Below, one piece after another: positions 1 to 20,514 of a stretch of DNA of 21,066 nucleotides; position 1 is the first letter of the stretch; every line of letters starts with the position of its first letter. The notes beneath the pieces are model-generated. The model saw only the letters and a list, made by a program, of their open reading frames with translations, did no database searches and had not been told where the DNA came from. Both the position numbers and the translations under genes were made by a program. The DNA comes from a virus: UHGV virus genome UHGV-0139471; one strand, 5' to 3'.

Positions 1-215
1 GCAAACCCAACAGCTTTCCCGCCTGTCGCAGCCAAGGGGTCAACATCAAAAACGTTTTCACAATAATGAAGCGTCTCAGGATGGTTAGTTCGGTGCATGG
101 CCACTGCGTTTTCGTCATGGTTTATCGCAATATCAACGCTACGACCGATCGCCATTTCTATCCCAGTTGATGCACCGCCACCGCCCGCAAAGTTGTCTAC
201 GATGAGCTCACGCAT
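1..215 (-). CDS. DNA (cytosine-5)-methyltransferase, N-terminal part (gene runs off the window start)
   Basis: Reverse-strand translation from ATG at 215..213 gives MRELIVDNFAGGGGASTGIEMAIGRSVDIAINHDENAVAMHRTNHPETLHYCENVFDV...; FxGxGG AdoMet-binding motif I and a following N-HP segment are typical of C5-MTases. Not in the ORF track because it is truncated. Start lies 2 nt past the upstream gene stop (210..208). Confidence 0.6.
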   Translation of the reverse strand, partial: MRELIVDNFAGGGGASTGIEMAIGRSVDIAINHDENAVAMHRTNHPETLHYCENVFDVDPLAATGGKAVGF

Positions 216-1161
216 GAGCGGTCCCCCTCATGCTGCCGACAAGACCACCAGCAACGGTAATGATTTCGCTGGTGGGCACCCGCTCCAGCCACAACTGGTT
301 AATGTGGGCCTTCAGCTTGTTCTGCTGTGAGAATTCCAGATCCTCTGCGCCTTGTAACTGTTCAAAGACGAGACCAACTTCCAGTGGCCAGATCCGGGAT
401 TCAGCCTCAGCTAGTGATGCAACAGCATCGGGGATGATCACTTCAGGAGACTGAACTGGCGAAGCTGGTGACAGGAATTTTCCCGCAGCAAACTCAGCCA
501 AAGCCATACTTGCGCGCCCTTTCGCCTCAAGCTCTATACGATCGATATAGCTAAAGCGCTCCCCACACCATGTCTTATCAAATATCACGATAGCGCCAGC
601 AAAGAAGGCGCTGGTGGGCTTCTGCTTTTCGTCGGCCGGCACAAACCACGTTGGGAGATCGAATCCAATACGACCACGAATAAACATGATGTGATCGGCA
701 TATTCCGGCCACCATGTTTCACTTGTTGCTGACTTCACGAGGTAAATGTAACGACCACCCTTTTCACGCTGCTCGGCGGTATAGTTCATAATATGAGTCA
801 TGCCAGTGATGGCTTGTTTTTCATGGTACTGCGAGCGGCTGTACGGCGGATTAGCAAAGGCCGCTCCTCCGAGTTCTACCAGACGACCAGACCAGTCCTG
901 CGTCAGCGCATTATCTTCAGCGGTATACCATGCCGGGCATTTTGTATTGCTGTCGTCTGCAAACAGGTCCAGCACCAGCGGGCCAAACAAAGCGTTAACG
1001 CCCCAGAACAGCAGATCAGGGGTACGCCATTGATCCCCGACTTCTTTCAAATAATGCGAACTTCGCTGGCGCTGTTCCTCAAGTGCCAGGCAATAAGGGC
1101 TGACGCTTTTTGTTAAATTTTGCTCTTCTGCGGTCATAGCTTCTTGTACTTCCTGACTCAT
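208..1161 (-). CDS. DNA N6-adenine methyltransferase (phage Dam-like) with about 100 aa C-terminal extension
   Basis: 317 aa ORF; catalytic NPPY motif (FANPPYS); N-terminal WRTPDLLFWGVNALFGPLVLDLFADDSNTKCPAWYTAEDNALTQDWSG matches my recollection of phage Dam-family MTases; GGGGAAA Shine-Dalgarno 5 nt upstream of ATG. Confidence 0.8.
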   Translation of the reverse strand: MSQEVQEAMTAEEQNLTKSVSPYCLALEEQRQRSSHYLKEVGDQWRTPDLLFWGVNALFGPLVLDLFADDSNTKCPAWYTAEDNALTQDWSGRLVELGGAAFANPPYSRSQYHEKQAITGMTHIMNYTAEQREKGGRYIYLVKSATSETWWPEYADHIMFIRGRIGFDLPTWFVPADEKQKPTSAFFAGAIVIFDKTWCGERFSYIDRIELEAKGRASMALAEFAAGKFLSPASPVQSPEVIIPDAVASLAEAESRIWPLEVGLVFEQLQGAEDLEFSQQNKLKAHINQLWLERVPTSEIITVAGGLVGSMRGTAHA

Positions 1162-1352
1162 AGTTTTCCCCTGCGCTGATCAGCATTAACAAGTGCTCTC
1201 AGTAACCAGTAACGGCGATCAAAGCTGAAAAGGTCATTTCTGAGGAGTGCATATTTTCTGCGAAAAATAACGTCGTGCTGCCACCAGTAACGCCAGTGAT
1301 GCAAACGCACAAGGCGCCGGAGACTTATCAAAATCCTCTTCAATCGGAGCAC
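1158..1352 (-). CDS. hypothetical small basic protein (64 aa, Arg/Trp-rich)
   Basis: GTG start at 1352 preceded by GGAGG at 6 nt spacing; stop TGA overlaps the ATG of the Dam-like gene (ATGA coupling). Composition is unusual, so coding status is uncertain. Confidence 0.3.
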   Translation of the reverse strand: MLRLKRILISLRRLVRLHHWRYWWQHDVIFRRKYALLRNDLFSFDRRYWLLRALVNADQRRGKL

Positions 1353-3865: not shown

Positions 3866-3894
3866 ATAATAATTACCAATCTATCTTTGGTCAA
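3866..3894 (-). promoter_or_regulatory. pR-like promoter for cro and the leftward early operon
   Basis: On the minus strand: -35 TTGACC (3894..3889), 17-bp spacer, -10 TATTAT (3871..3866). Confidence 0.5.
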
Positions 3895-4749: not shown

Positions 4750-4983
4750 ATGGCAAGCAAAGGCATTGAAAACCTTATCAAGGACGCATTAGCAAACGGC
4801 TGTCATGTAGTCCGTAAAGCGCATCGCTTCGAGGTAAGCAAGAAAGGCCAAAAATCAATCACTCTTATTATTTGTGAAGATGGCACAGCTTACCGGGGAG
4901 ATATTGACCTAACGATCGCCATAGCCATTCGCACTCAAAAAGAAATGCGCAGCATCCTCGGCCTGCCGGCCAAGGCAAGTTAA
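4750..4983 (+). CDS. hypothetical protein (77 aa); weak HicA-toxin-like resemblance
   Basis: AGGAAC Shine-Dalgarno 7 nt upstream; occupies the first position of the pL-side operon. Segment NGCHVVRKAHRFEV and C-terminal RSILGLP loosely resemble HicA (G-W-x-x-R-x-x-GSH ... ILKQAGL), but the GSH motif is not conserved. Confidence 0.5.
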   Translation: MASKGIENLIKDALANGCHVVRKAHRFEVSKKGQKSITLIICEDGTAYRGDIDLTIAIAIRTQKEMRSILGLPAKAS

Positions 4984-6100
4984 TTACCACAGGTATCTTC
5001 GGGAGGGGTTGCGAAGCTGGATTGACCACCAGCAACAGAAACTCACCCGACATACAGCAGCCGTTTAACCCACGGCGTCGGGGGTCCAGTAGACCTGGAT
5101 TAATACTGTAGGGGTTGTGCCGGTTGGTCGCCGGCGCCCCGCCCGAAGATACCTGAACGAACATGGCGAAGCCGACAGCGTTGAAGGCGATTTTCTCGGT
5201 TTGCGCGCTAAACAATAGCGGGGGTGAAATCGGGGCGGAGAAGCAGAATCCGCGATGTCGGGACTTGATACTTCCGGCCATACCAACAAGCCGAATGATC
5301 GCGTAACGATCCTTTGCATCTGCCCCGGCGAGGTGGCGCCGCCGGACCGGGGTAGATGAATCGTACACAACATGAAAGCGCATTCCATCTTCATCCGTCG
5401 TGGGGACTGGTTTGTAACTGAAGGAGTGCGCTTCCAGTTGTGAACGGCAATATTCACGACCGTTGTATGGCACATGCAGCGTTAGCAGCCCGGATGGTTC
5501 CCTTGAAGTTCCATGCGCTATCCGGACAACTGGAATGTGCAAGCTAAGTGTTTCAGGCACGACGTGCGCCCCACCAGCGCGGCGAAAAGGTGTGACGCCC
5601 GGGAAGAGTCCGGGACACAACGATGAGGGCATTGACGAGCAAGGCACAGAGTCTGGTTCGATTCCAGACGCCAGGATAGTTCTATATCTGGTGATGGGCA
5701 GGGAAAAGGTCCGTTCGATTCGGACACCGGCAGTGCTCTCTTCGTTGTGGTAATTGCGGCTATGCGCACGTGACGAGCCAAACCCGTTCAATGAATGCGT
5801 TTCCGGGCAGTGTACGTCGCCGGTTATGGCTTAACCCGGCAGGTGGAGGCACCACCGCCACAACCTAGTTAACTGTGCTGTGTGTAGTCTTGGCGGTTAT
5901 CCAGTTTTCCACTATCCAAAGGAGGAAGAGGATAACGTTCTGATGGATAACCGCCCTTTTTACACAATACACAAGAGCATCACCGGGCGACGGGCTCATA
6001 ACCCAATCCACCCGGGCGGCGTCCTAACCGCAGGTGCTCTTCTGTGTTGTGTACGGAGAAATTCCCGGCGGTGGCAGCCGCCTTTCGAGAGGGTAAAACC

Positions 6101-12277: not shown

Positions 12278-12445
12278 ATGAACTTGGTTTTCTCTCTCAT
12301 TTTTTTAACGGGCTGCATACTGCTTGGCAGTATTTCTGTTTTTTTGTGGGGTGATGGTCGCAGGAAACTTAGCGTTGCATTTGCACTATTGGTTTTGATG
12401 TATGCATTTGCAGCCTGTATAAATTTATTTTCGGGGAGGTTGTGA
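12278..12445 (+). CDS. very small membrane protein (55 aa, two hydrophobic segments)
   Basis: Below the track cutoff. ATG 2 nt after the upstream stop, GAGGGG upstream; MNLVFSLIFLTGCILLGSISVFLWGDGRRKLSVAFALLVLMYAFAACINLFSGRL; TGA overlaps the recombinase ATG (TGATG). Confidence 0.35.
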   Translation: MNLVFSLIFLTGCILLGSISVFLWGDGRRKLSVAFALLVLMYAFAACINLFSGRL

Positions 12446-13323
12446 TGTTAAGCGATCTTCTTATCATGGTTGACCGCCGTGCTCAGGCGGTCAGTTTGCG
12501 CGAAAAAACAATTATTAACGAACGTCACGCCGTCCGTATGCTGGAGCCTGTTTTATCTCTTGGGGTACGCGCTGCGAGCGTACCTGATACATGGGTAAGA
12601 TACGCCGACCGTTGCATTGATAATGGGCTGGCGGCGTCTACGGTTCGCCAGCGCATCGATTGCGTTGCGGCGGTTGTAGCCTGGGTAATTCATGCTGATA
12701 TTAAATTCAAACCAGCCGCGCCGGGCTCTCTGAGCAGGATGCTTGATGCCATGCGTACAGCGGCAAGAGCTATAGGCAAGCGGATAAAGCGTCACAGGGC
12801 ATTGAGCAGGCCAGCCCGTGTAAGTGTTGACGAGTATTCTACGGTAGTGCGGGATATTGAGTCTTTACGGGATCCATACAGGGCCGCAGCCCGTATGATG
12901 CTGTGTTTTGGAATGAGGGCAACAGAAACGCTTTCACTGTCTCCATCATCAATTCTTTCAGGTGGGAAGTTGTTTGTTCCTGACCGGGAGACTAAAAATC
13001 ACTCCGATTTGCTTTTACCTTTGCCAATTAAATACATTCCTTTAATCGAGGAGTGGCTAAGCGTGATAGGTGAGTCAGAAATAAAGTACAACACGCTTGT
13101 AACGACGATTTCCCGCGCCGGGATTAAATGGCGCTGCCATGATTTAAGAAAATTATTCAGAACTTCCGCCGCCGTGCGTGGTGAGGATTATCTTGCAACA
13201 GAATTGATATTAAATCACGCAGTGAAGGACGTTCCGAGCGTTTACTTACAATCTCCACCGTTTGCGGCAATGAGGCGAGTTTTAAACAATTCGATTGAAG
13301 AATATTTACAGGTTAAAGGGTAG
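12445..13323 (+). CDS. divergent tyrosine recombinase (integrase/invertase family)
   Basis: About 292 aa; GGGGAGG Shine-Dalgarno 5 nt upstream of ATG 12445; catalytic-residue pattern readable: Arg (GMRATETL), H-x-x-R (CHDLRKLF), downstream His and Tyr (ILNH ... SVYLQ). Short for a phage integrase; no obvious arm-binding N-domain. Confidence 0.65.
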   Translation: MLSDLLIMVDRRAQAVSLREKTIINERHAVRMLEPVLSLGVRAASVPDTWVRYADRCIDNGLAASTVRQRIDCVAAVVAWVIHADIKFKPAAPGSLSRMLDAMRTAARAIGKRIKRHRALSRPARVSVDEYSTVVRDIESLRDPYRAAARMMLCFGMRATETLSLSPSSILSGGKLFVPDRETKNHSDLLLPLPIKYIPLIEEWLSVIGESEIKYNTLVTTISRAGIKWRCHDLRKLFRTSAAVRGEDYLATELILNHAVKDVPSVYLQSPPFAAMRRVLNNSIEEYLQVKG

Positions 13324-13628: not shown

Positions 13629-14662
13629 TGCCTGAACATTGCATCACAAATAATGTAAGTAAAAAGTTAAATATCGATTAACACAAAAGCAACATAATAC
13701 ACGTTAAATCATGTGACGGGATTGTTAAATGTATGTTGTGTGGATAATTTTATAAGCATCATGAAATGATGGTTAAGTAAATGATTGAAGTCTCGTTTTA
13801 TGCAAAATAACCAAAAATAAATTTAACCTATAAAATTCAGTGAATTATGTAATTTTGATTGTTTTTCATTCAAAAGTGACTCGATTTTTGGCGTCAATAC
13901 CTTGCATTTTTGCGCTGAGGAAAAATAAAAATAATTAAGTGAAATATTCATTAATTTAATCAATAGGTTATAGTTGTGAGGCAAACGGATGTATAAGGTT
14001 TGACATTCAGTGTCAGCACGAGTAAAAGACCAAAAAGAGGGCAATTAAAGCCATTTTATTTAAAAATGTTTCCACTTGAAATAAAGCCGGACATTTACCA
14101 CCTTACCTATAGCTATACGAATCAATAAGCTATGTTATTTTTCGTGGTGTTTACTGTTTTATTCGCCGGAAATGTTTCTGTAATCTCATCTGACCAGTGC
14201 GTTTAGCATCTTGACATGAGTTTGTTATGAGTTAGCAGAAAGGGGGAAAGCATAAGCATGTGGGGTGGCGGAAAAGATAAAATCGCGCTCAGGCTTGTTT
14301 CCACCAGCGATTGCAGGAATCTATCACTTTTCACTGATGTTTGATAACGGTTAAATATTTGACCGTTCAATTATGTTTGCTCTGTTACATATTCATTGCG
14401 TTAAAAATGAGCATAACAAAAGCAACAAATATCAAACATTCATGTTGGCACGTTAAATGTTATCCATATTGAAAGTGAGTAGTGATGCGTGGTTGGGGCG
14501 ATATTGACCACTAACTTAAATCGTGCAGGTGGGTAGTTTCATGCTGCTTATCCACAGATTTAGCCTTGTGCGTAATATTGACACGTATTACCGCTGGAGC
14601 CGTTTCTGTAATTAGTCAGGCCATTGCCTTTAAATCACCTCTATATAAAGGAGGTGAACTTC

Positions 14663-15616
14663 ATGGCTTACGGGCGTCAGTTCGAAATAACCGTTAACTG
14701 CACAGATGGAGAGACGATCCACATTACTGATGTGGACGTTGATTTCTCGTCTGTTCGCGACGATGAGAAAGAGCCAAACGAGGCCGATTTAACGTTGTGG
14801 GGTTTAACACCACAGACTCAGAACGCCATCGCTCAGGCAGGGTCAACCGTCAGTGTTGCCGCTGGCTATATAGATGAAGGGATGTTCACCCTGTTTCAGG
14901 GCGAACTTATCAGTGCCGTGACCATCAAGCCTAATGAGGTATACGGCCTGAAAATGAAAATCTACGAAGCGCTGATTCCGTTCCGGGCCAGCGTAACATC
15001 GCGCACGTTTCGCAAAGGTCAGAGCCTTAAAGATGCTGTTTTACAGGTAGCGTCCGATATGGGGATGGGTTGTCAGTTCTCTAAATCAGCTTCCTCTCTC
15101 ACCCTGGCTAAAAGCGTCAGCGCTGCGGCATTGTCCCGCGATGTGCTTACCAGCCTCTGCAAGCCAGTTAATGCCAACTGGTCGCTTCAGTATCAGTCAA
15201 TCATTGTCACTGCCGGTGATTCAATTCTTACCGGTGCCGCTGTTTTCTCCCCTAAAACAGGCTTGCTTGGTGCGCCGCTTCTGAAAATTCACTCCCCGAA
15301 ACGCACGAAGAAAAAGAACCCTTCCGAAAAAGAGCAGATCCAGAAGAAGCACGACAAAAGCATAACTACCTATGTCTGGCCCCCTAAGGGCTCGCAGGTT
15401 GACTACTCAAAAGGTGCTCGCCGCCAGATGGGGGTTATTGAGGCTGTTACATGGGAATCGTTGCTTTATGGCGGGGTTGAGATTGGCGAACAGGTAGAGC
15501 TTTCTTCTCCATCAATGGGCGAAGGCTGGATGGTTATTGTGAAGAAGATTTCCCATCGCTTTAGTACCCGCGACCGTCAGGCGTGGTCATCGTCATGGGA
15601 GGGCATCATTGCATGA
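14663..15616 (+). CDS. phage structural protein, first gene of baseplate-like operon (possible hub component)
   Basis: ATG at 14663 with strong AGGAGGT Shine-Dalgarno (track ORF starts at an upstream TTG); 317 aa; stop overlaps the spike gene ATG. Hub assignment rests on position only. Confidence 0.55.
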   Translation: MAYGRQFEITVNCTDGETIHITDVDVDFSSVRDDEKEPNEADLTLWGLTPQTQNAIAQAGSTVSVAAGYIDEGMFTLFQGELISAVTIKPNEVYGLKMKIYEALIPFRASVTSRTFRKGQSLKDAVLQVASDMGMGCQFSKSASSLTLAKSVSAAALSRDVLTSLCKPVNANWSLQYQSIIVTAGDSILTGAAVFSPKTGLLGAPLLKIHSPKRTKKKNPSEKEQIQKKHDKSITTYVWPPKGSQVDYSKGARRQMGVIEAVTWESLLYGGVEIGEQVELSSPSMGEGWMVIVKKISHRFSTRDRQAWSSSWEGIIA

Positions 15617-16323
15617 GAGCCGGTAGCCAGATTCAGGCCATTGTTGAGCAGGCGCTTAATTCAGCGCTTTTTTCGCTTGAGGCAACGATTGTTTCCGTCA
15701 GCGGCGGGCGGGCAACTGTCCAGCCATCCCCAAAACGCATATTCGGTGACAACTCGGAGCCGATTGCTTATCCGGCTGTTGAAAACGTTCGTTTAGTTTC
15801 GCTCGTCTGGGATAGCGGTAAGTCAGGCGTTAGCGGGCGAGTTTCTCCGGGGGATGAATGTCTCCTTATCGCACTTTCTCACGGAGACGGCGACGAGCCA
15901 GACCATAAGACCATTTCAAACGCTATCGCTATATGTGGATTTTCAGACGTTGCCAGCCACCAGATGCCGGATGAGGCAGGATTAAGAGTGTTCAGCGGTA
16001 GCGCCTTTATTGAATGGGATGACGGAAGCATTAAGGGCGATACCGGGCAAGGCGCAACTTTCGAGTTTACGGGCAACAAAATGACCGTTAACGCGCCGGG
16101 CGGTATCGATATGACAGCGCCAATGACAACCATAAACGGGAATTTGACGATTTCAGGATCCATCAGTCAGGGCGCAGAAGGTGGCGGCAATGCTGACTTT
16201 GGCGGCAACGTCACCATAACCGGCGATAGCAAAGCCGCTGACCACATCAGCGGCGGTAAGTCCTTCAATTCTCACACGCATAAAGAAAACGGTGAGGGCG
16301 GTCAGACCGACGCCCCGACATAA
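15613..16323 (+). CDS. baseplate spike protein (gpV / Mu gp45-like)
   Basis: ATG 15613 in ATGA overlap with the upstream stop; N-terminal OB-fold-like segment with GRVSPGDECLLIALSHGDGDEP (P-x-GD-x-V-L-V-x-F-x-GD pattern of V-type spikes); Gly-rich beta-helix-like C-terminus ending in an H-x-H apex motif (NSHTHKENGEGG). Confidence 0.65.
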   Translation: MRAGSQIQAIVEQALNSALFSLEATIVSVSGGRATVQPSPKRIFGDNSEPIAYPAVENVRLVSLVWDSGKSGVSGRVSPGDECLLIALSHGDGDEPDHKTISNAIAICGFSDVASHQMPDEAGLRVFSGSAFIEWDDGSIKGDTGQGATFEFTGNKMTVNAPGGIDMTAPMTTINGNLTISGSISQGAEGGGNADFGGNVTITGDSKAADHISGGKSFNSHTHKENGEGGQTDAPT

Positions 16324-16332
16324 GGAAAAACC

Positions 16333-16710
16333 ATGAAATTAAATGACCATGCGGCACAAATCGCACTTTCTAACGGTGGCTTTCTGATGGCGGGTGACTA
16401 CAGCACAACCGTTAGCAAAGGCGAGATTATCAACATCACTGAGCGAACCGGGCTTGTAGTTGAGCGTGTCGAGTGCATCACCCTGATTAACGCGCCGTTG
16501 TATATGGTCATGGCGACGTGCAGGGAGAACAAAGACCAGTACATGCCATTTTACAGCGATTTGCCGTTTGAATTACCGCATCAAGCGGCGATGGCGCAAA
16601 TGTTAAATGATGCAGGCGAAGGCTTTGACCTTGATGACCTGCTGGATATTGAGTCGCTGGATTCTGCTGTGACGGTCGTCCACGTTGAAAAATGGATGCA
16701 CACCGAATGA
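16333..16710 (+). CDS. hypothetical protein (125 aa) within baseplate operon
   Basis: AAGGAAA Shine-Dalgarno; acidic C-terminus; no family recognised. Confidence 0.55.
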   Translation: MKLNDHAAQIALSNGGFLMAGDYSTTVSKGEIINITERTGLVVERVECITLINAPLYMVMATCRENKDQYMPFYSDLPFELPHQAAMAQMLNDAGEGFDLDDLLDIESLDSAVTVVHVEKWMHTE

Positions 16711-16925
16711 ACATCACAACAACTCAGTATCGACAGGGTTTAAAGGGCTGTTTCATTTCCGCAGAGAGGCCGCAGGCTGGCGACTCTCTGACGCTGGTAA
16801 TGCCAACATGCAGAGGGCGGCGCATTATCCCTGTTGGCGAGGTTCAGCGGGTCGAGGCTGTAGGTACTAGCCGTTGCCTCGTATGGGTTTCAAAGCTGGC
16901 ATTCGTTGAGGGGATGAATTACTGA
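16707..16925 (+). CDS. hypothetical small Cys-containing protein (72 aa)
   Basis: ATG at 16707 in ATGA overlap with the upstream stop (track shows a longer form from 16692); its stop overlaps the next ATG. Confidence 0.45.
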   Translation: MNITTTQYRQGLKGCFISAERPQAGDSLTLVMPTCRGRRIIPVGEVQRVEAVGTSRCLVWVSKLAFVEGMNY

Positions 16926-17272
16926 TGCTGGACATTATGCAGGATGAAAGCGGAGTCATTCTCCAAAATGGCGATTTGGTGTTGGATGGTGGCATTGATG
17001 GCATTGCACAGCAGGCAGAAATCCGCGTAGGTACTAATCGCGGCGAGTGGTGGCTTGATGAAACTCAGGGGTTGCCGTGGTTGCCTGGCATTATGGCGTC
17101 ACGTCTGCCGGTTTCGATTGTATCGAACATGATTAACGCAGAGGCTCGGCGAACTTCTGGTGTGACTGATGCAAGAACCACAACCATCAATGATGTTAAG
17201 GGGGATTACACGATCCGCTTTGCGGTTTATGTCGGTGCCGATAGTACGGAGGTAACGAGTGGAATTAATTAA
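16925..17272 (+). CDS. baseplate wedge protein (gp25/GpW-like or related small baseplate protein)
   Basis: 115 aa; segment RVGTNRGEWWLDETQGLPWLPG fits the T-x-x-GE ... P-x-x-G pattern of gp25-type proteins; lies directly before the large wedge-like gene. Confidence 0.5.
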   Translation: MLDIMQDESGVILQNGDLVLDGGIDGIAQQAEIRVGTNRGEWWLDETQGLPWLPGIMASRLPVSIVSNMINAEARRTSGVTDARTTTINDVKGDYTIRFAVYVGADSTEVTSGIN

Positions 17273-18668
17273 TGATGGCGGCTGGCACGGTGCCAGACTG
17301 CCAGAGCTGCGCGGCGACATTTACCAGAAATTGCGCGACCTTCTAGGGAATATAAGCCCGGACGGTGATTCCCTGATTGGTCAGGTTATGGCGGTTGTCG
17401 CTGAAAATGACCTGAATATAGTGGAGGCCATCGGCTGGACGTTTGCTGGTTTCTTCATTTCATCAGGTGAAGGCATCCAGCTTGACGGTATAGGCGAGGG
17501 GTTCACGCTTCCTCGCTATGGCTTAACCCGTTCATCTGCCGATGTGGTTTACCTGCTGGCTTCAGGGCAGGTAATCGCGTCTGGTGAGACTTTCACTATC
17601 TCCGGTATTTCTGGTGACTGGTCGCCGTCAGGCAGTATTCAGGCCAACGGTAAAAGTGCTACCGGGTTTGTGCTGGAGATTAAGTCTGATGCTATCACCA
17701 CGGGAAATACCTTCACCATATCCATCAACGGTAAGCCATATTCAACGCAGTACCAGACAGGCGATACGTCTGATTCGATTTTATCCAGGCTGTATCCCAT
17801 CATTGCCGCCGCTGATACGTCAGTAACCACATACTCAACAGAATACGGGTTATTGCTTTATGCAGCGGATGGTAAATCGCTCATCCAGTTTTCATTTTCT
17901 GATGATGTTTTTTCCATCGTCCGTACTGGAATGCCCGCAACAACATGGTATGACAGCGATACTGAGTTTCCTGATGTTCGATTCGGCTATGTGGCAACAG
18001 ATGACATTCTGATTCTAGCCAACGGTAGTAAAGGCTTTGAAATAGAAGATGACGAGCAATACAGAGAGCGTCTTTTCGAAGCAGCGGAGGCAGGGAGAAA
18101 GAATGTCAGCGCATCAAGACCGGGCATAAAAAACGCCGTTCTAGCTGTTGCTGGCGTGAGTTACGTCACTGTTAACACCAACAGAGGCATTGAGACAGAT
18201 GCTGATGGTCTGCCGGGGAAATCAGTTCAGGTGTTTGTTGCTGGGGGGGATAGCGATGCTATAGCGCAGGCCATATATGACGCGGCAGCGGCTGAGTGCG
18301 GTTTCTACGGCAACACATCGGGTACAGCAACTGACGGTACAACTACCGAAACAGTGTATTTCACTCGCCAGAGCTTCCAGCTTGTCTATGTTTCCGTTTC
18401 CGGTGATACATGGGATGCAGAGACAACAGGCAAGCCAGACGATTACGAGAGCGTAGCTAAAAGCGTTATCACTGGCTATTTCTCACAGCTTGAAATGGGG
18501 CGTGACGTTTTCGCAGGTCAAATATCTGCCCGTTTGGTTACGGCTTTTCCGACGATGACGGATGTAACAGTAACGGTAGGTACTTCTGAATCACCAACCG
18601 GAAAAACCGTTCCCATAAGTAGCGGTGTTGTCGCAGTTACAGATTCTACTTCTGTGGTGGTGTCGTAA
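17259..18668 (+). CDS. large baseplate wedge protein (J-like by position)
   Basis: 469 aa; GTG start with GGAGG at 6 nt spacing; synteny (after the W-like gene, before an I-like-sized gene); no motif confirmed by eye. Confidence 0.5.
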   Translation: MELINDGGWHGARLPELRGDIYQKLRDLLGNISPDGDSLIGQVMAVVAENDLNIVEAIGWTFAGFFISSGEGIQLDGIGEGFTLPRYGLTRSSADVVYLLASGQVIASGETFTISGISGDWSPSGSIQANGKSATGFVLEIKSDAITTGNTFTISINGKPYSTQYQTGDTSDSILSRLYPIIAAADTSVTTYSTEYGLLLYAADGKSLIQFSFSDDVFSIVRTGMPATTWYDSDTEFPDVRFGYVATDDILILANGSKGFEIEDDEQYRERLFEAAEAGRKNVSASRPGIKNAVLAVAGVSYVTVNTNRGIETDADGLPGKSVQVFVAGGDSDAIAQAIYDAAAAECGFYGNTSGTATDGTTTETVYFTRQSFQLVYVSVSGDTWDAETTGKPDDYESVAKSVITGYFSQLEMGRDVFAGQISARLVTAFPTMTDVTVTVGTSESPTGKTVPISSGVVAVTDSTSVVVS

Positions 18669-19423
18669 TGGAACCATCAATTAAAAAACCGGGTCAACTG
18701 GCAACTGAACGACTTACCTCAAAGGTCAGATTACAGAAAAATATCGACCTCGTTTCCGGTATCAAGGCCAACCAGCAGGGCATGGTTGATGCACTGGACT
18801 ATCTGAAAAAGGGTTTCTCAATTACTGATTCTTCGGGTCTTTTACTTGATGCATGGGGGGAGAGGTTCGCTATACCGCGAGAGGGCCGCGACGATGATAG
18901 TTACAGGATAGCTCTCTTGCAGGGTGCAGGGACGCAATCTGTTTCGCTTCAGTCACGCCGCGCTGTCGGTGGATTCATCCAGTTAGCCTACGGAATTGCA
19001 TGGCTGCGACTGAACAGGGTAGGGCTGACCACTGGCGCGGTGGGTGCGGCTTTCAACCGCGTACCGTTACGTGCTGTTTTCGTCCATTGTGGCGCGATGG
19101 CTCCAGATATCGAACTGCCGGAAACGCTGGTTGCGGCAACTTTTGCCGGGGATATATACAGCGCTGCAATACCTCCTAACGTCAAACTAACCCACCTCGC
19201 GCCAATGTTCCCCGGTAATGCGTTTCCGGCTGTGTGGGGTGGTATCAAGTACGAGAAGACGCAAAAAACCGTGATGGCTACAGCAACCAAAGGGATCCGT
19301 GTCACGGCGACAAAGTCACTTTTGACCCGGATAGCAGCTACACAAACCATTAATGAAAATGAGCTTGTGGAGCCATTCAACACGCTTGTAACAGTCAAAA
19401 AGATGAAGGTGACAAATGGATAG
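18668..19423 (+). CDS. baseplate/tail protein (gpI-like by position)
   Basis: 251 aa; TAATG overlap with the upstream gene; assignment by synteny only. Confidence 0.45.
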   Translation: MEPSIKKPGQLATERLTSKVRLQKNIDLVSGIKANQQGMVDALDYLKKGFSITDSSGLLLDAWGERFAIPREGRDDDSYRIALLQGAGTQSVSLQSRRAVGGFIQLAYGIAWLRLNRVGLTTGAVGAAFNRVPLRAVFVHCGAMAPDIELPETLVAATFAGDIYSAAIPPNVKLTHLAPMFPGNAFPAVWGGIKYEKTQKTVMATATKGIRVTATKSLLTRIAATQTINENELVEPFNTLVTVKKMKVTNG

Positions 19424-19649
19424 CTGGGCCAATACTGACAAAACTTACGCTGGTCAAGGTGGTGCTGATATTCCAAACAAGCAAGAGCCATCAGAGGAAA
19501 TGCAGGCTACCGGGTTCGCGCCGACCTACTTTGATGTAAATGGCAATCTGGTGTTTGGGGATGGGATAAGCGCTCAGGTAATGAATTACATCCTCAACGA
19601 CCTGTACAAAAAATATCAGGAGCTTTTAGCCAGGGTAGAAACACCATGA
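19416..19649 (+). CDS. small tail-associated protein, paralog A (77 aa)
   Basis: Shares GFAPTY ... G-x-L-x-x-GD ... N-x-I-x-NDLY with the next gene; overlaps the upstream stop. Confidence 0.5.
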   Translation: MDSWANTDKTYAGQGGADIPNKQEPSEEMQATGFAPTYFDVNGNLVFGDGISAQVMNYILNDLYKKYQELLARVETP

Positions 19650-19882
19650 ATACATTTTCGACCGTTGCTCGTAATTATCCTGTAAGTGGCGGAATTTATC
19701 CGAGCAAGAAACAACCATCGGCAGCGAAACAGGCCGATGGCTTTGCGCCAACTTACATTAATGCAGGCGGAAAATTGATTGAAGGGGATCCGGTTGACGT
19801 GGCGGAGCTTAACTTCATTTTTAACGACCTGTACGCGCAGGCGGCACACATTGACCAGCTTCTTACGGCTAAGGGGAAATAA
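19646..19882 (+). CDS. small tail-associated protein, paralog B (78 aa)
   Basis: ATGA overlap with paralog A; same conserved motifs (DGFAPTY, GD, NDLY). Confidence 0.5.
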   Translation: MNTFSTVARNYPVSGGIYPSKKQPSAAKQADGFAPTYINAGGKLIEGDPVDVAELNFIFNDLYAQAAHIDQLLTAKGK

Positions 19883-20514
19883 TGGCATTAACACCAGATG
19901 AGCTGATTGCGATATCAGACCTTGAGAAAGCACAGATTACAGACTCTGCTGTAGTGCCTGATTGGGTTCTTCCTGCTGAAGTCAGGGGCAGTAGCGCGCC
20001 AATAAACGGTATTCCGTACCCTCAGCACACCATTGACGTGTTTGGCGGGCTTCTCACTGGCGAATGGTCGCTTAAATTTCAGAACCCGTTACAGCGCGTT
20101 GTGTGCGATTTGGAGATATTCCATGGAGAGAATGCGCCAGATTCGACGCCACCAGACTTATCAGCGTTACAATTGACGGCGACCGGCTTTGATAAAGCTG
20201 TGATTTTTTGCCCCGCAAAGACGGTTACAGATGCAGTGCCGGTAAACTTTATGGGGCTGGCTGTTTCCGGCGTTACACCAGTGTACAGGCTGGGAGGAAA
20301 ACGCAGATTTCTGGAGCAGTCTGGAATGGTTGTTATCCCGCTTACCGTGATTCTACTGTCAACACAGCCGCTGACCAGTCAGGAAACAAGCAGGGCATTA
20401 TCCGTCACGCTGAAGCGCAGGAATGAGAATCAGATGACTGTAGCGCCAATTATCAGCGGAATGGTCTACAGTAACCCGCTACCTTCAGCCCGAGATATTG
20501 CGCAGGCGTCGTGA
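19882..20514 (+). CDS. hypothetical tail-associated protein (210 aa), last gene of the coupled operon
   Basis: TAATG overlap with paralog B; no family recognised. Too small for a canonical long tail fibre. Confidence 0.5.
   Translation: MALTPDELIAISDLEKAQITDSAVVPDWVLPAEVRGSSAPINGIPYPQHTIDVFGGLLTGEWSLKFQNPLQRVVCDLEIFHGENAPDSTPPDLSALQLTATGFDKAVIFCPAKTVTDAVPVNFMGLAVSGVTPVYRLGGKRRFLEQSGMVVIPLTVILLSTQPLTSQETSRALSVTLKRRNENQMTVAPIISGMVYSNPLPSARDIAQAS

Follow-up and report, generated by a model that had tools for sequence, protein, structure and literature searches.

Enterobacterial prophages commonly carry orphan DNA methyltransferase genes in their early operons. The pair analyzed here, a gene for a Dam-like N6-adenine methyltransferase followed by the beginning of a gene for a C5-cytosine-type methyltransferase, is located at positions 1 to 1161 of the UHGV virus genome UHGV-0139471, a stretch of 21,066 nucleotides (nt) that is called the window in the following and represents a Klebsiella prophage of the CPS-53 / ST64B type. 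Both genes and their neighbors are encoded on the minus strand. A known counterpart of the Dam-like protein is Sb44 of the Salmonella phage ST64B, which is 74% identical over residues 23-312, including the C-terminal domain described below, and whose gene occupies the equivalent operon position, likewise preceded by O-like replication and PerC-like genes. In contrast to the window, ST64B has no C5 gene, and RusA is encoded directly after Sb44. The Dam proteins of Stx and cdtI phages share a core that is 67% identical to that of the window protein but have neither its linker nor its C-terminal domain. The CPS-53 prophage of E. coli K-12 is syntenic with the window, the gene orders yfdO-yfdN-yfdM and yfdP-yfdQ being common to both. 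YfdM of E. coli K-12, annotated as 'putative methyltransferase' (L338, 6113-6388), is a 91-amino-acid (aa) N-terminal fragment of the Dam core that ends just after the NPPY motif, which rules it out as a counterpart of the C-terminal domain.

The nearest functional analogue is Dmt of phage P1, a likeness of function and not of membership. Dmt is likewise encoded by a temperate enterobacterial phage under repressor control and, according to its annotation, combines N6-adenine (GATC) and C5 activities with no restriction enzyme. However, Dmt is a single chain in which the C5 domain precedes a D12-class Dam (PF02086); it carries the canonical TPCQ motif and gives no match to the C-terminal domain, and was therefore rejected as a Dam-then-C5 fusion that might include this domain. 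The window pair, in contrast, consists of two overlapping open reading frames (ORFs) with the adenine enzyme, a member of the PF05869 family, in first position. The C5 methyltransferases of the Bacillus phages SPR, phi3T, rho11s and H2 are orphan enzymes with tandem target-recognizing domains in their variable region. The C5 enzyme of the window resembles the SPR/phi3T type as an orphan phage enzyme with a variable region of 3-9 tandem modules, and differs in its Gram-negative host, its P-D-C motif and the associated upstream domain. The concept of multispecific phage C5 methyltransferases with several recognition domains is cited in PMC8936443. M.BatI of Bacillus anthracis, an orphan C5 methyltransferase encoded on a prophage, is active upon expression in E. 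coli and silent in the lysogen (PMC8936443); it shares with the window enzyme the orphan status and the location on a prophage, but is unusually small with a short recognition domain, whereas the window enzyme is unusually long and modular. M.EcoGIX proved to be an unrelated plasmid enzyme. A paper characterizing the Dam-plus-extension form or the long enterobacterial C5 family was not found in the literature searches.

The methyltransferase module as such is an ordinary, widely annotated feature of enterobacterial prophages, and its detection, as first reported, is routine. Two points are modestly new: the variable region of the C5 enzyme is modular, and the Dam-like protein ends in a separable domain, here termed C-dom, that marks the position of the long C5 gene. 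The reading that we regard as probable on the whole is that of a translationally coupled orphan methyltransferase module, expressed from a PR-like promoter, with an anti-restriction role and with C-dom as an accessory. This two-gene DNA-modification module is embedded in the PR early operon under repressor control, with the replication genes before it and the segment from RusA to Q after it. The first gene encodes a minimal phage Dam-type N6-adenine core, a flexible linker and C-dom, and the second a long C5-cytosine-type methyltransferase that begins within the last codons of the first and would be translated in a coupled manner. We infer that both enzymes are expressed from PR only after infection or induction and that they methylate replicating phage DNA, so that progeny would be protected from the restriction systems of the next host. 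Several target sequences may be covered at once by the modular C5 enzyme, and C-dom would accompany the C5 gene as an adaptor or accessory.

The Dam-like protein (208..1161) has 317 aa and consists of a Dam-like core, a linker and a C-terminal domain. As claimed in the initial annotation, it is an N6-adenine methyltransferase with an NPPY motif: it matches PF05869 with 145 bits (cut-off 28.1, residues 35-216) and the equivalog model TIGR01712 (phage_N6A_met) with 183 bits (cut-off 97.05). The extent of the Pfam and NCBIfam matches defines the catalytic core as residues 35-216 (514..1059). Catalytic motif IV, NPPY, is located at residues 104-107 (841..852, read directly as AAT CCG CCG TAC), agrees with the pattern (D/N)PP(Y/F) and is invariant across the 22 homologs aligned. 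With regard to the S-adenosylmethionine-binding motif I, the stretch D65-L-F-A-D69 N-terminal of NPPY is also invariant and differs from the canonical FxGxG loop. Among the family models, phrog_111 spans residues 7-317, and PDLC03332, the MTase_II model of PADLOC, matches residues 22-312 with 508 bits. A word-indexed search returned 1451 database homologs. The best 120 of them include many entries from Klebsiella, Enterobacter, Escherichia, Raoultella and Pluralibacter and are named 'phage N-6-adenine-methyltransferase' wherever the source gives a name; hundreds of near-identical, already annotated copies exist. A solved structure was not detected by sequence search. The AlphaFold model of the 317-aa protein, computed from a shallow alignment (≥74% identity), is poor with a mean predicted local distance difference test score (pLDDT) of 54 and was used for the C-terminal helices only. 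Characterized members of the PF05869 family, namely the T1, HP1 and VT2-Sa Dam proteins, methylate GATC. Given this family membership and the similarity to the Stx-phage core, the Dam-type core of the window probably targets GATC as well. In one homolog (P0004, 406 aa), the Dam protein is joined to an N-terminal segment of Band_7 (PF01145) type; this homolog is known from a single short ENA contig of 1441 nt and is probably an assembly or gene-calling chimera.

The C-terminal extension of about 100 aa noted in the initial annotation is real and comprises approximately 101 residues beyond the end of the Pfam match. According to the alignments, it is composed of a helix, a linker and a conserved domain. 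The helix closes the Dam core and extends to about residue 228. It is followed by a Pro/Ser/Ala-rich linker (residues 229-253; 403..477) that is not conserved, varies in length and has a pLDDT below 50. In many relatives, an in-frame insertion of about 140 aa is found at the linker, giving proteins of 439-455 aa (L049-L081; P0043, P0162); for P0162, Pfam reports the Dam core only. The remaining residues 254-317 (211..402) form C-dom, a 64-aa domain of three helices. Its consensus is approximately VWPxEVxLVFSQVxxAxxLPxxxQxRLKxHINRMWLExxPxxxIIxxAxxL, and no Pfam or NCBIfam model covers it. The AlphaFold model of C-dom is a confident three-helix bundle (pLDDT 88.9). The ratio of nonsynonymous to synonymous substitution rates (dN/dS) amounts to 0.10-0.16 (56 codons, synonymous sites close to saturation) and indicates purifying selection in each context: 0.10 in Dam-fused copies with a C5 gene, 0.135 in Dam-fused copies without one and 0.16 in copies lacking a Dam core.

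A word-indexed search with the extension gave mostly fragments, and the exhaustive profile search was the informative one. With C-dom as query, it retrieved 48 representatives (E ≤ 0.001) among 1.84 billion cluster representatives. The domain is C-terminal in all of them except for one weak multi-stretch match in a 1268-aa protein. Its N-terminal partners are a PF05869 Dam, an MT-A70 protein (P0184), a methyltransferase with a DPPH motif (P0176), sequence of no known family, or none at all, the stand-alone proteins having 84-138 aa. C-dom is thus a separable domain and no integral part of the Dam fold.

The genomic neighborhood of C-dom was surveyed across 245 fetched loci, adjacency being counted where the C5 start is at most 60 nt away from the C-dom stop codon. 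A long C5 gene is found directly downstream of C-dom in 56 of 57 stand-alone, all 24 DPPH-fused and 131 of 154 Dam-fused loci. For example, an 86-aa stand-alone C-dom directly precedes the long C5 gene in Klebsiella phage Kpn_R1, and six divergent representatives (P0184, P0178, P0183, P0182, P0177 and the P0170 type) are each located directly before a PF00145 protein of 658-731 aa or its start. Viewed from the C5 side, C-dom is present upstream in 80 of 80 viral contigs that carry a C5 protein of 68-97% identity. C-dom is thus a methyltransferase-associated domain that is tightly linked to the C5 gene in enterobacterial phages, without being obligate for the whole C5 family. Judged from these sequence patterns, it is most likely a protein-protein adaptor or accessory for the methyltransferases. 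Its repeated fusion to unrelated adenine methyltransferases suggests, if confirmed, a physical or regulatory link between separate modification enzymes. A more specific proposal, which we consider somewhat doubtful, is that C-dom could be a dedicated accessory subunit of an uncharacterized family of modular, multispecific C5 enzymes and would tether the upstream adenine methyltransferase of PF05869, MT-A70 or DPPH type. Together they would form a heteromeric complex that methylates replicating phage DNA at several adenine and cytosine targets in a single pass.

The window holds the first 71 codons of the long-form C5 gene (1..215), which is cut by the window edge. Its N-terminus reads MRELIVDNFAGGGGAS and includes motif I (S-adenosylmethionine binding), FAGGGG, at residues 9-14 (174..191, read directly), in agreement with the FxGxG pattern. 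The profile search suggested for both proteins was thus successful for Dam, which scores above the cut-offs, and not for the C5 fragment, which alone has no Pfam or NCBIfam match. The fragment does match phrog_29443, phrog_116 and phrog_5999. Sequence beyond the window was read from the metagenomic contigs L084 and L086, which both encode the exact Dam protein and were found by look-up of it; their identity to the window is 99.8-99.9% over 9-11 kb. The 71 residues are identical to the N-terminus of a 616-aa protein in L084. The initial assignment to the C5-cytosine methyltransferases on the basis of motif I is therefore upheld, because of the PHROG matches and the full-length copies in the near-identical contigs. 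The precomputed PF00145 match of the 616-aa protein is flagged 'weak', and the full-length relative from Klebsiella phage Kp4866-6 scores 69.9 bits against PF00145 (cut-off 22). Besides motif I, the 616-aa protein reads SPDC at the place of motif IV, with Asp instead of Pro before the Cys, and has motifs VI (LENVEEF, with ENV), VIII (IRKRFF, with RxR), IX (RMLQPHELYRAQGFP) and X (GNAVPPP). Outside the window, the context of motif IV is FSPDCTHYS in L084 and FSPDCRHFS in Kp4866-6. The 616-aa protein aligns with the solved cytosine methyltransferase 3g7u over the regions of motifs I, VIII and IX/X. Relatives of the C5 protein are found in many phages, including those of Gordonia, Mycobacterium, Pseudomonas and Vibrio as well as Halobacterium phiH.

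Between motifs VIII and IX, the C5 proteins contain a variable region of 228-457 aa with 3-9 copies of the motif P..T(I/V)T. The region is built of tandem, interchangeable modules of 32-48 aa with one such motif each, which are gained or lost as units. Accordingly, forms of 616 aa and 656 aa differ by whole blocks of 35-41 aa, one motif per block. The modules of 204 distinct C5 proteins group into about 24 families. These keep a collinear order, and the architectures differ by the presence or absence of families, HCABFG being the window type and HCDABFG, HCDBFG, HCDAFG and HCDABFIG further examples. Each module may represent a target-recognition domain. Canonical C5 enzymes have one T(L/I/V) motif in a single recognition domain. 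The tandem T(I/V)T modules, viewed together with this canonical design and that of the Bacillus phage enzymes, make a multispecific C5 enzyme plausible by analogy, although we advance it tentatively. Module-wise variation among close prophages is the pattern expected if phages shuffle target-recognition units against host restriction. If confirmed, this shuffling bears on the prediction of phage host range in Klebsiella, including that of therapeutic phages.

At the junction of the two genes, the initial annotation placed the C5 gene 2 nt after the Dam gene. This is wrong: the C5 ATG (215-213) sits 5' of the Dam stop codon (210-208), and the ORFs, which are in different frames, overlap by the 8 nt ATGCGTGA (208..215, read directly). 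A Shine-Dalgarno-like GAGGGGG (223..229) is present in the Met-Arg-Gly codons of the C-dom tail, at a distance of 7 nt from the C5 ATG, and is predicted to act as the ribosome-binding site. Since the C5 gene starts inside the 3' codons of the Dam gene and its putative ribosome-binding site lies in the C-dom tail, the two genes are probably translationally coupled. The junction is kept in related loci, where the C-dom profile match ends at a distance of -1 to +8 nt from the C5 start.

The near-identical contigs also define the position of the pair in its operon. The Dam gene is followed by the genes for the 616-aa C5-like enzyme, a LexA-DNA-binding-domain protein (157 aa), RusA, KilA-N, a 174-aa protein, DUF968/HNH, antiterminator Q and a 63-aa protein, and then by a third methyltransferase (PF01555, 359 aa), an HNH homing-endonuclease-like gene, a TerB-like gene and the holins. 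Klebsiella phage Kp4866-6 (95% identical) shows the same gene order. Upstream of the Dam gene, a PR-like promoter, a Cro-like gene, a CP76/cII-like gene, DUF4222, an O-like initiator and a PerC-like activator are found. The pair is hence located in the middle of the PR operon, between the replication genes and the segment from RusA to Q, and not at the end of the early operon as originally described. The PR-like promoter (3866..3894; TTGACC, 17 nt, TATTAT), assigned by consensus match only, lies 5' of the Cro-like gene and is the presumed source of methyltransferase transcription. In the 178-nt spacer between the PerC-like gene and the Dam gene (1162..1339), neither a sigma-70 promoter nor a terminator is predicted on the strand of the methyltransferase genes. 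A restriction-type nuclease is encoded neither within ten kb on either side in the near-identical contigs nor in Kp4866-6, and PADLOC flags only methyltransferase and homing-endonuclease models at the locus. The absence of a restriction enzyme among the genes after C5 supports the term 'orphan'. The earlier statement that no restriction partner is visible thus holds in these contigs, where a restriction enzyme just past the window start was looked for and none was found; the window alone cannot decide it. Overall, the initial observation was largely right and is corrected with respect to strand, spacing, completeness and operon position.

Several observations weigh against parts of the favored reading. 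The C-dom/C5 loci sampled are redundant and nearly all enterobacterial. One representative (P0196) has no C5 gene following, and C-dom is missing upstream of distantly related long C5 genes from phages of Burkholderia, Vibrio and Pseudomonas. Fold searches with the C-dom model gave no significant match and returned generic helical bundles only, which leaves the adaptor role without structural support. The C5 relative from Kp4866-6 reaches 46.5 bits against TIGR00675 (dcm), below the cut-off of 100.65, and the catalytic motif is P-D-C, with an Asp preceding the Cys, where the canonical motif is P-C. In addition, a phage-encoded putative Dam was detected in lysogen cultures of the Stx phage Phi24B (PMC3342100), making some expression in lysogens possible. 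Within Dam-fused loci, 23, including that of ST64B, lack the C5 gene and keep an intact C-dom under selection, and the divergence of C-dom follows the Dam core (Spearman 0.53) more closely than the C5 N-terminus (0.37), leaving a simple cassette of co-inherited C-dom and C5 gene unsupported.

The latter two observations would also be expected if C-dom served the Dam enzyme, for example in DNA binding, dimerization or processivity, and the adjacency of the C5 gene merely reflected inherited gene order; the PHROG and PADLOC models, which take Dam plus C-dom as one family, fit this explanation as well. We nevertheless regard it as unlikely. C-dom copies without a Dam core, whether alone or joined to MT-A70, DPPH-type or unknown N-termini, still directly precede the long C5 gene, and Dam cores without C-dom are widespread, only 12 of 485 phage records covering at least 80% of the query. 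Furthermore, the variable, insertion-tolerant linker parts C-dom from the core. A second explanation denies C-dom any protein function and views it as an upstream reading frame that brings ribosomes and a ribosome-binding site to the C5 gene. The shortness of the stand-alone copies, the conserved junction and the putative ribosome-binding site in the last C-dom codons are all compatible with it. Against a mere leader frame stands the purifying selection in every context, including loci where the C5 gene is absent and with synonymous sites that approach saturation; moreover, the same residues are kept between copies that are only 37-45% identical, and the three-helix fold is confidently predicted. 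This explanation thus appears very improbable.

With regard to the role of the two enzymes, the pair could be the modification half of a restriction-modification or other defense system whose nuclease is encoded beyond the window. The window ends inside the C5 gene and by itself could not exclude such a nuclease, and the C5 protein partially matches Druantia and DISARM methylase models. However, the ten kb downstream in the near-identical contigs are an ordinary lambdoid nin-region followed by Q and lysis genes. The sole nucleases there are RusA, the NinG-like DUF968/HNH protein and the HNH homing-endonuclease-like protein beside the third methyltransferase, and Kp4866-6 has the same layout, which makes a missing defense nuclease extremely improbable. 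A role of both enzymes in the lysogen, in epigenetic regulation of the host or in the maintenance of lysogeny instead of the protection of phage DNA, is also rather improbable. An enterobacterial host is expected to have its own Dam, and the genes are located inside a repressor-controlled early operon with no promoter of their own predicted. GATC is rarer than expected in the window, as might follow from a role in the lysogen, and host Dam was reported to be needed for stable 933W lysogeny (PMC3342100). The Dam expression in Phi24B lysogen cultures points in the same direction, but expression in a lysogen culture can stem from the fraction of spontaneously induced cells, and in other studies prophage methyltransferases proved silent in lysogens (PMC4659465, PMC8936443). 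Given this silence and the lack of a predicted promoter, the comparison of methylomes between a lysogen and a cured strain proposed initially would probably be uninformative.

Several short palindromes are rarer than expected across the window, with observed/expected ratios of 0.44 for CTAG, 0.60 for GATC, 0.62 for GGCC and 0.57 for CCWGG. The moderate depletion of GATC and CCWGG is compatible with past selection at these sites, without demonstrating it. Two GATC sites (1178 and 1217) are found in the 178-nt leader directly 5' of the Dam gene. This spacer also contains the Shine-Dalgarno sequence of the Dam gene, AGGGGA (1167-1172). Its predicted RNA fold is not more stable than shuffled sequence (z = 0.98), and it has no Rfam match. 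A 64-aa ORF with a GTG start (1158-1352) was taken as non-coding, as it has no family match and is uncalled in public contigs. Further upstream, the PerC-like activator (1340-1798; phrog_1324) belongs to the same operon as the Dam gene, and the O-like replication initiator (1795-2706) matches PF09524, PF13730 and phrog_428.

The third methyltransferase is of the PF01555 N6/N4 type and is encoded just 3' of Q (17583-18662 in L084). The phage thus encodes at least three DNA methyltransferases. Beside it, a 166-aa HNH_3/AP2 protein (18939-19439 in L084) matches homing-endonuclease models. The LexA-domain protein encoded after the C5 gene (12794-13267 in L084) has no Peptidase_S24 match; in some loci without a C5 gene, its gene directly follows the Dam gene (L038). 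An RdgC-family gene is located 5' of an MT-A70-plus-C-dom gene and a long C5 gene in L249 (2856-6906), and in phage P1 the RdgC-family gene hrdC is found 5' of dmt (L337, 20510-23676). The occurrence of RdgC before methyltransferases in both cases indicates a recurrent RdgC-methyltransferase neighborhood.

In the remainder of the window, a tyrosine-integrase gene (12442-13323) is followed by baseplate-like genes (14624-20514; E217_GP41-like, Baseplate_J) on the same strand. Early region, integrase and tail module thus succeed one another in the window, with no obvious intervening host DNA. A 307-aa ORF (4868-5791, minus strand) is flanked by the repressor gene and the yfdP-like gene and lies on the strand opposite to the left operon. 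It has no precomputed Pfam match in public contigs and could be an accessory gene expressed during lysogeny.

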